Virus record (IMG/VR): IMGVR_UViG_2740892235_000005 | Direction: 5' to 3' (one strand) | Source: a virus | Taxonomy: Duplodnaviria; Heunggongvirae; Uroviricota; Caudoviricetes | Length of the DNA: 22,032 nucleotides | Part shown: positions 12,982 to 13,001 of the stretch, piece after piece | Layout: every line of letters starts with the position of its first letter | Position numbering within the stretch: position 1 is the first letter of the stretch | Notes under the pieces: generated by a model | Told to the model about the DNA's origin: nothing | The model's database searches: none | What the model saw: only the letters and a program-made list of their open reading frames with translations | Position numbers and translations under genes: made by a program

Positions 12982-13001
12982 AAAAAAACCGCCGCAGCGG
13001 T
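12982..13001 (-). terminator. intercistronic hairpin plus U-tract between TerL and the capsid gene
   Basis: Minus strand: ACCGC-TGCG-GCGG followed by TTTTTTT, then AGGAGG and GTG start; differs by one base from the element at 5257..5276. Confidence 0.4.

Follow-up and report, generated by a model that had tools for sequence, protein, structure and literature searches.

The window analysed here, 22,032 nt in its entirety, contains a run of phage head and tail genes, and both the open reading frame list and the Pfam assignments place every gene relevant to this study on the minus strand. Read in this orientation, the small terminase gene (15315..14686; ORF/Pfam assignment) is followed by the gene for the large terminase subunit, TerL (14689..13028; Pfam TerL_ATPase and TerL_nuclease, and BP-4795 annotation), and then by a gene for a 645-aa fusion of prohead protease and major capsid protein (12964..11027; Pfam Peptidase_S78 and Phage_capsid). 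Next come a 73-aa ORF, the gene for an 861-aa portal protein and four head-tail connector genes, the last of which is the tail terminator gene (7107..6763). The tail portion consists of the major tail (tube) gene (5980..6696; Pfam tail tube and Ig domains), the genes for the tail assembly chaperones G and T (the T segment covering 5567..5286; Pfam Phage_tail_T), the tape measure gene (5238..1996; Pfam Phage_HK97_TLTM, TMP_3 and Tape_meas_lam_C) and, last in this order, tail gene M. Three of the junctions, TerL/protease-capsid (site A), tail terminator/major tail (site C) and chaperone T/tape measure (site B), harbor the hairpins that are the subject of this work.

Around the site A junction, identity to Stx1 phage BP-4795 amounts to 98.9%, and 93 phage records, most of them of Stx-converting phages, match this DNA at 90-99.7%. 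In BP-4795, the closest annotated phage, the Q, stx1, lysis and terminase genes lie upstream from, and on the same strand as, the late genes. As the BP-4795 homologues of the window genes are situated downstream of Q, stx1 and the lysis genes, all on one strand, the window genes are taken to form the Q-dependent late operon of a BP-4795-like lambdoid prophage of the Shiga-toxin type; Q and pR' themselves are absent from the window. Of 5426 complete E. coli genomes, 1242 contain the junction sequence; single genomes have as many as seven copies, and the total is roughly 2800. Many Shiga-toxin phages carry the site A junction sequence.

The original prediction had placed two near-identical hairpins, each with a U7 tract, at 12982..13001 and 5257..5276, and both were located at these positions. 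On the minus strand, site A reads as the 20-mer ACCGCTGCGGCGGTTTTTTT (13001..12982) and site B as ACCGCTGAGGCGGTTTTTTT (5276..5257). The two match at 19 of 20 positions, the single mismatch being the third base of the loop. A search of the window allowing up to three mismatches returned only these two copies, and 100 shuffles returned none. The paired cores are as initially described; at full length, however, the stems are longer than was then written. At site A (12982..13003) the hairpin GGACCGC-UGCG-GCGGUUU overlaps the U-tract (U7, 12988..12982) and its stem, GGACCGC/GCGGUUU, comprises 7 pairs, including A-U and two G-U pairs. At site B (5257..5280) the hairpin GAGAACCGC-UGAG-GCGGUUUUU likewise overlaps its U7 (5263..5257) and has a stem of 9 pairs with A-U and G-U counted. 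When the isolated elements were folded, as had been proposed, both hairpins formed, with energies of -10.3 (A) and -10.8 kcal/mol (B) and z-scores of -2.8 and -2.6, respectively. The same structures are predicted locally for a nascent transcript of 89 nt whose 3' end is the U-tract.

Each element occupies a short intercistronic gap and is followed within 25 nt by a ribosome binding site (RBS) and a start codon, in agreement with the initial description. The site A gap measures 63 nt (TerL stop 13028, GTG start 12964). Here an AGGAGG (12975..12970) precedes a GTG (12964..12962) lying 24 nt past the stem. Use of this GTG is backed by homology, the sequence M-T-L-K-R-A of the relatives beginning at this very place with an ATG. 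What had been called a capsid gene does encode the capsid protein, in the form of the protease fusion described above. The site B gap measures 47 nt (T stop 5286, ATG start 5238), and the tape measure gene has its RBS, GGAG/AAGGTG, at 5250..5241 and its ATG (5238..5236) 25 nt past the stem.

Site C (6713..6733, minus strand) represents a third member of the family, absent from the original prediction. It consists of the hairpin CCCGC-CGCGU-GCGGG followed by U6, in the 66-nt gap ahead of the major tail gene. Immediately 3' are the sequence AUUAUC, then an AGGAGG (6706..6701) and finally the major tail ATG at 6696. Sites A and C thus have the 3' flank GCGG(G)-T6-7-ATTNTC-AGGAGG in common. About 40 nt ahead of site C, on the same strand, a weaker hairpin with a U-rich run (AGGUCAC-GGU-GUGACUU, 6751..6776, -5.8 kcal/mol) overlaps the last codons and stop of the tail terminator gene. 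One more structure, hairpin D (ACGGGAGGC-GUGU-GCCUCCCGU; 10991..11012, minus strand; -17.8 kcal/mol), has no U-tract. It sits directly 3' of the capsid stop codon, in the 44-nt gap ahead of the ATG of the 73-aa ORF (10982), and the capsid gene is therefore bracketed by hairpin A upstream and hairpin D downstream. Hairpin D is kept in relatives with its stems covarying, the U-tract being absent there too. Elsewhere in the window, adjoining late genes overlap or abut one another, with no hairpin in between.

Sites A, B and C all display 4-5 G-C pairs with A-U/G-U extensions, energies of -8 to -10.4 kcal/mol in a common comparison, loops of the tetraloop type and a U-run directly 3' of the stem (U7 at A, U7 at B, U6 at C). 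They thus combine the features expected of a Rho-independent terminator, namely a GC stem-loop, a U-run at the stem and a location outside coding sequence. Scanning the coding strand of the morphogenesis operon for a hairpin followed by at least 6 T in 8 positions identified only four matches, at 13000, 6774, 6733 and 5275. All four fall in the three 47-66 nt gaps, which make up about 1.3% of the operon, the match at 6774 overlapping the last codons of the preceding gene. Sites A, B and C are thereby confined to the coding strand and, on it, to the spaces between genes.

The elements are widely conserved. Relatives were sampled as TerL relatives from IMG/VR and as capsid relatives, one genome per GTDB species. 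In relatives belonging to about a dozen genera of enterobacteria, each of the three junctions has a hairpin with a T-run, invariably 17-26 nt ahead of the next start codon. The persistence of the elements at the same junctions across genera, with covariation of the outer pairs, speaks in favor of the terminator part of the original prediction. At site A, all but one of the Enterobacterales relatives with the TerL to protease-capsid order have both hairpin and T-run, the exception being an Erwinia locus (L250) in which the T-run is interrupted (TTTTTGCGTTT). The genera represented include Enterobacter, Kluyvera, Buttiauxella, Citrobacter, Atlantibacter, Phytobacter, Kosakonia, Pantoea, Rouxiella, Erwinia and Entomohabitans, and capsid identity in Enterobacterales relatives with the hairpin goes down to about 60%. 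The site A hairpin was also found in Marinobacter, Snodgrassella and several metagenomic contigs, where identity in the capsid N-terminal portion drops to as low as 46%. TerL relatives in which another gene comes next have no such gap. The hairpin is absent from alphaproteobacterial relatives and from one Hydrocarboniphaga with the same gene order, which indicates that it is not essential to the module.

In an alignment of 22 site A sequences, 93.5% of the cells pair, against 85% in column shuffles (none of 500 reaching 93.5%) and 25-54% when the partners are slid. The fifth pair changes from C-G to A-U or G-C in 6 of these sequences. The T-run and the CCGC/GCGG core pairs are invariant or nearly so; since the four core pairs never vary, the support from covariation is confined to the outer pairs. 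The loop varies freely (TGCG, TCCG, TGTG, GCAT, TTCG, TACG, CACG, CTCG, TCAG and others). At site B, related E. coli phages have either CCGC-TGAG-GCGG or, with an added T-A pair, CCTGC-TGTG/TGCG/TTTG-GCAGG; one G.U variant occurs, and a run of U7-8 is kept in all. At the same junction, other genera have CCGC-TTCG-GCGG, (G)CCCGC-N3-5-GCGGG(C), CCCCGC-GCAT-GCGGGG or GCCCG-TTAA-TGGGC. The site C junction of relatives contains CCGC-TTCG-GCGG, CCGCC-N4-GGCGG, CCCGCC-TGAT-GGCGGG or GACCGC-TCCG-GCGGTC. In some relatives a fourth element follows the major tail gene. Among unique gaps, the start codon follows the end of the stem after 21-23 nt at C (sd 0.4), after 24-25 nt in most cases at A, and after 17-26 nt at B; the stretch from the preceding stop codon to the stem spans 1 to 794 nt. 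The overall pattern shows that the elements are under selection.

These data bear on the trivial explanation that the hairpins arose by chance and have no function. Two results could be taken in its favor: terminator-like matches in the whole window number 22, which is not above the 17.7 expected from shuffled sequence, and the z-scores become unremarkable when the elements are folded with 66-71 nt of context. Yet the strongest sites lie on the coding strand and only within the three gaps mentioned, and their position is kept across many genera with covariation, making an origin by chance hardly credible.

The near-identity of A and B called for a comparison of its own, for which a shuffle null is unsuited and hairpin pairs from different junctions provide a better standard. 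Related phages supplied 41 distinct hairpins, drawn from all three junctions, of which we compared the 12 nt before the T-run. Pairs differing by at most one base over these 12 nt account for 7 of 221 A-versus-B and 9 of 187 A-versus-C combinations (about 3-5%). The CCGC...GCGG core occurs in 36 of the 41 hairpins, which accounts for likeness of this degree between sites, and the commonest loops are TTCG and TCCG. One and the same hairpin, ACCGC-TTCG-GCGGT, is found at A in one phage, at B in another and at C in a third; within other genomes, hairpins A, B and C are unlike one another. The resemblance of A to B is thus a family resemblance (a CCGC/GCGG core with UNCG-like loops) and has little meaning in itself. 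The one-base difference reads as convergence on a narrow, compact design made of the CCGC/GCGG core, a tetraloop and U7; it does not indicate duplication, conversion, shared origin, a special repeat or a sequence-specific ligand.

The opposite view would be that A and B are copies of a short repeat or mobile element, recombination linkers or products of gene conversion. The 19/20 identity of the 20-mers, unmatched in shuffles, would fit such an origin, as would the recurrence of ACCGC-TTCG-GCGGT at A, B or C in different phages and the fact that cargo genes insert at these junctions. However, the likeness covers the hairpin and a single further base, stopping one base past the 20-mer, and beyond it the flanking sequences show no relationship; a dispersed repeat would be present in several copies with homologous flanks, and the window has two copies only. 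Moreover, the divergence of A, B and C within other genomes speaks against concerted evolution, and some 3-5% of the cross-site pairs of distinct hairpins are equally similar. On these grounds we rejected duplication or a mobile repeat. The linker variant is unsupported as well: the C-terminal 120 residues of TerL are 82-88% identical to the window's where the whole protein is about 66% identical, which places the exchange point (the break in the mosaic) inside TerL and not at the hairpin. Altogether, we regard this family of explanations as very improbable.

We consider it probable, on comparative grounds, that A, B and C are internal Rho-independent terminators of the late operon that are read through by Q-modified polymerase. 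This interpretation builds on what is established here, namely the anatomy of the elements, their strand, placement, conservation and covariation, and the precedent of phage HK97 (see below). Actual termination, read-through under Q and the biological pay-off are what we infer. In lambdoid phages, terminators are ignored by Q-modified polymerase, as stated in the StxS and IsrK papers. The 17-26 nt that separate the stem from the next start codon are filled by the U-tract and the RBS, so that no promoter fits in between; a search of the coding strand in the morphogenesis region (1662..15315) for promoter-like sites found none. It follows that transcription of the capsid, tail tube and tape measure genes would require read-through. 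The hypothesis that emerges is that, in a polymerase lacking Q, formation of the GC hairpin and stalling on the U-tract would lead to release, while a polymerase loaded with Q at pR' would pass all of the elements. Polymerases of the first type would include those leaking through tR', those starting spuriously within the operon and those transcribing inserted cargo genes. The elements might in this way make the distal late genes strictly Q-dependent. The shortness of the stems means that the efficiency of termination is possibly modest. The U-tract provides a further argument: its retention at A, B and C, but not at the equally conserved hairpin D, favors termination over plain protection of 3' ends. 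One observation runs counter to the terminator interpretation: with the lysis and terminase genes situated ahead of the elements, the benefit of insulating the capsid and tail genes is questionable.

A second difficulty for the terminator interpretation is that the tight spacing between stem and start codon would fit a role in translation equally well. Conceivably, the elements are translation-initiation cassettes in which the hairpin insulates the RBS against structure further upstream and against the terminating ribosome, and the U-tract serves as a landing site or enhancer for the ribosome (S1). The outcome would be strong, uncoupled initiation of the next gene, any termination being incidental. 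Several of the findings described above suit this idea. The distance from stem to start is almost fixed while that from stop to stem spans 1-794 nt; the two most abundant virion proteins are the products of the genes behind A and C, which have a perfect AGGAGG and a common 3' flank; the other late genes, having no hairpin, overlap or abut in a manner that makes coupling possible. Relative rates of lambda late gene expression were reportedly set by translation initiation, a finding attributed to Sampson et al. in 1988. Nevertheless, the spacing is about the minimum that will accommodate a U-tract and an RBS, hence genome compaction alone would suffice to explain it. Furthermore, site B precedes the gene for a low-copy protein, the tape measure, and 6-8 U placed exactly at the stem base are a terminator signature, a placement for which an enhancer has no need. 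We view translation as a rather unlikely explanation of the elements, though one compatible with the terminator reading.

The original prediction had also envisaged that the elements might act as attenuators, or as RNA processing or stability elements, in setting the stoichiometry of the products. Of that interpretation, the part concerning intrinsic terminators read through under Q has the support of the comparative evidence and the HK97 precedent; the role in stoichiometry is unsupported. The genes behind sites A and C specify the most abundant virion proteins, capsid and tail tube, and all three elements follow genes for low-copy products, the reverse of what attenuation or 3'-end protection would bring about. 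Were A and C attenuators, the mRNA for capsid and tail tube would become scarcer with respect to that for terminase and tail terminator, and protection of upstream 3' ends would favor the low-copy products. Site B, ahead of the tape measure gene, is the only element that fits the stoichiometry idea.

In its processing version, the proposal is that RNase E cuts in the A/U-rich sequence past the hairpin, that the upstream fragment is protected from 3' exonucleases and that the resulting half-lives set the ratios. The stretch past each stem is indeed single-stranded and A/U-rich, and the capsid gene, lying between hairpins A and D (-17.8 kcal/mol), could give rise to a stable monocistronic mRNA; lambda E is bracketed likewise. 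But protection by A, C and B would benefit the genes for the low-copy terminase, tail terminator and chaperone T, and 3'-end protection needs no U-tract, which is the most conserved feature of the elements. This makes processing an improbable function.

Additional support for terminators comes from the genes that land next to them. In relatives and in HK97, the space separating the T stop codon from the hairpin has taken up four unrelated kinds of cargo gene, whose products are a 137-aa lipoprotein, a 113-aa secreted protein, a membrane/zinc-ribbon protein and HK97 gp15. All have the same orientation and a low GC content of 0.34-0.42. In the window the 47-66 nt gaps contain no ORF and therefore no such cargo gene (a moron, if equipped with a promoter and terminator of its own). 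The location of cargo genes just upstream of the hairpin is consistent with a role in stopping transcripts that start inside the prophage, and the elements might serve as a resident stop signal for morons landing repeatedly at this place. Taking this a step further, one may speculate that hairpin, U-tract and RBS make up a dual-purpose cassette which the late operon retains as a fixed docking point. Non-Q transcripts, including those of cargo landing upstream, would be ended by its resident terminator, and the U-rich leader and strong RBS would keep translation of the next gene independent of the insert. Such an arrangement would explain why the element persists when empty, why the spacing to the start codon is nearly invariant and why at least four unrelated cargo genes are found between T and the hairpin. 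Still, we advance it tentatively and think it rather unlikely to be correct as a whole. If the elements do terminate unmodified polymerase, they would help to silence the capsid and tail genes in lysogens and would define where a repressed prophage can carry and express cargo genes. They leave the current understanding of lambdoid late gene control unchanged. As compact natural units of terminator and RBS, about 45 nt long, they are possibly useful as parts.

It seemed less likely that 3' fragments ending at the hairpins are Hfq-bound regulatory RNAs in lysogens. The whole window yielded no match to Rfam at gathering thresholds. Under relaxed conditions the one notable hit was the isrK family (RF01394), which aligned below threshold to site B (5257..5324, 27.1 bits); site C scored 16.8 bits with it, the gathering value being 50. 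In the site B alignment, which overlaps the 3' end of the T coding sequence, the terminator hairpin is matched well and the second hairpin of the model pairs poorly. The promoter directly downstream of antQ that is typical of isrK has no counterpart here, site B lying between tail genes. Given the score and this wrong genomic context, membership was rejected, and the match is best described, at the sequence level, as a resemblance between terminators. Another candidate, the prophage sRNA PasB, was discarded on the finding that the complement of the published probe is absent from the window at up to three mismatches; in strain E2348/69, PasB is antisense and lies between tail genes I and J, a region outside the window. 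As for EcOnc, the Hfq-bound sRNAs of EHEC prophages, the examples described in the text of the EcOnc paper are downstream of pR' and stx, and not among structural genes. The text of the published Term-seq study of EHEC Sakai (Sy et al. 2020) treats the stx region only. A literature search for transcript evidence at internal late-operon terminators of lambdoid phages turned up nothing usable.

The IsrK and StxS RNAs themselves offer a comparison of another sort. IsrK is a short RNA made just downstream of antQ, a Q-like gene in Gifsy-1. It ends in a terminator that shares the CCGC/GCGG core, followed by U6, and has an energy of -10.0 kcal/mol; in the IsrK paper this is a Rho-independent site which some of the transcripts pass. 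According to the StxS paper, tR' is overridden by Q. These tR'-type terminators are located directly downstream of Q/pR' and define a small RNA; the window elements, in contrast, lie 8-16 kb further down, between structural genes. Long operons with multiple terminators that only a modified polymerase completes have been described elsewhere (PMC8191782; bioRxiv 2024.11.20.624540). Among such systems are early operons of lambda, conjugative elements and, in Bartonella, the gene transfer agent BaGTA. The likeness to them is one of logic only, antitermination factors and hosts being different from those of the window.

Phage lambda has a comparable arrangement around its capsid gene, E. A hairpin GCCGC-CTGT-GCGGC with T7 (-8.9 kcal/mol) lies about 20 nt before E and a second one, GGCCC-TTCG-GGGCC, directly after it, so that E is bracketed in the same way as the window capsid gene is by A and D. 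Both hairpins, in the D/E junction and past E, are unannotated in the lambda record. The lambda head genes, however, have no sequence homology to the head module of the window, and neither the T/H (tape measure) nor the U/V junction of lambda has a gap or hairpin.

The closest parallel is with HK97, whose genome was described by Juhala et al. 2000. The HK97 RefSeq entry (NC_002167) carries the annotation "terminator, putative" at five places of the late operon. Two flank the major tail gene, one separating it from the tail terminator gene and one following it; a third immediately precedes the tape measure gene, a fourth comes behind the major head gene and a fifth ahead of the protease gene. 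These sites, which have putative status only, show the same anatomy as the window elements. Sites C and B match the HK97 junctions at 6692..6719 and 8398..8422, respectively, and the former, in the gap ahead of the major tail gene, is almost the same as site C in one of the relatives sampled here (L195). The HK97 stems end 18-24 nt ahead of the next start codon, and the energies of the annotated terminators (-11 to -14 kcal/mol) are in what we count as the same range as A, B and C. The two phages differ ahead of the tape measure gene: in HK97 the gene 15 moron comes first and then the terminator, and in the window the 47-nt gap at site B is empty. HK97 also lacks a TerL/portal gap and has its head genes in another order; for this reason site A has only a functional analogue there, the hairpin before the protease gene. 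From these sequence comparisons, the elements described here are an extension of the HK97 annotation, with its putative terminators, to the head-tail module of BP-4795 and the Stx phages, and belong to a kind that was recognised before in HK97 and can also be seen in lambda.

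Immediately 3′ of the capsid stop codon, the minus strand carries a hairpin (hairpin D, 10991..11012) with a calculated stability of -17.8 kcal/mol and without a U-tract, flanked by an SD-like AAGGAGG just upstream and by the ATG of the 73-aa ORF (10982). The structure is kept in all relatives, where its stems covary (e.g., GGCGGGGG-AAA-CCCCCGCC). Hairpin D could stabilise the 3′ end of the capsid mRNA. It could also bring the ribosome-binding site close to the start codon of the 73-aa ORF, as a hairpin does in T4 genes 38 and 25.

The sequence GCGGTTTTTTT, which constitutes the right arm and U7 of the near-identical hairpins preceding the protease-capsid and tape measure genes (sites A and B), occurs a third time on the same strand inside the 3′ end of the TerL gene (13035..13045), 5 nt ahead of its stop codon. 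No convincing left arm accompanies this copy. Further upstream, in the stretch preceding the small terminase gene (15320..15450, minus strand), a motif with GTTAAC at its heart or edge (ATGTTAAC / GTTAACAT) recurs, with five copies in about 120 nt; these are candidate terminase-binding repeats similar to cosB or pac. A weak hairpin followed by U5 (15423..15408, minus strand) also lies upstream of this gene.

Repeats are found in two other regions. Inside the portal gene (8684..9289), a 162-nt unit is repeated in tandem three to four times with 91-93% identity between copies, which translates into 54-aa repeats in the long C-terminal extension of an 861-aa portal protein; in BP-4795, the closest annotated phage, two portal ORFs are annotated instead of one. 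The lysis region (16750..20150) is duplicated in part: the Rz gene is present twice (17666..18139 and 19497..19982), and repeats of 180-280 nt show 84-98% identity. A Rha/ORF11CD3 antirepressor-like gene (16940..17485) and a DUF1441 gene (18536..19084) lie in between, and a gene with a TonB_C domain (16277..16618) is found a short way downstream of the duplication.

At the end of the tail module, an AT-rich gap of 198 nt (1464..1661) separates tail gene M from a Gram-negative porin gene (300..1463, minus strand; Pfam Porin_1, E 5e-143), at the end of which lies a strong terminator-like site (125..108, minus strand). In BP-4795, the position of the porin gene is occupied by tail genes L, K, I and J; therefore, the tail module in the window is truncated or replaced. 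This suggests a defective prophage carrying the porin as a cargo gene.

The junction between the tail assembly chaperone segment (T) and the tape measure gene is a hotspot for cargo genes. In related loci (L178/L158, L197, L240 and L244), unrelated low-GC genes, encoding a lipoprotein, a small secreted protein or a membrane/zinc-ribbon protein, have inserted after the stop codon of T and ahead of the resident hairpin; the gap is 540 nt in L178/L158. In L240, 831 nt separate the tail terminator and major tail genes, and a 176-aa ORF lies between two similar hairpins upstream of the latter. Gene 15 of HK97 is likewise a cargo gene at the junction between T and the tape measure gene, as in these loci.
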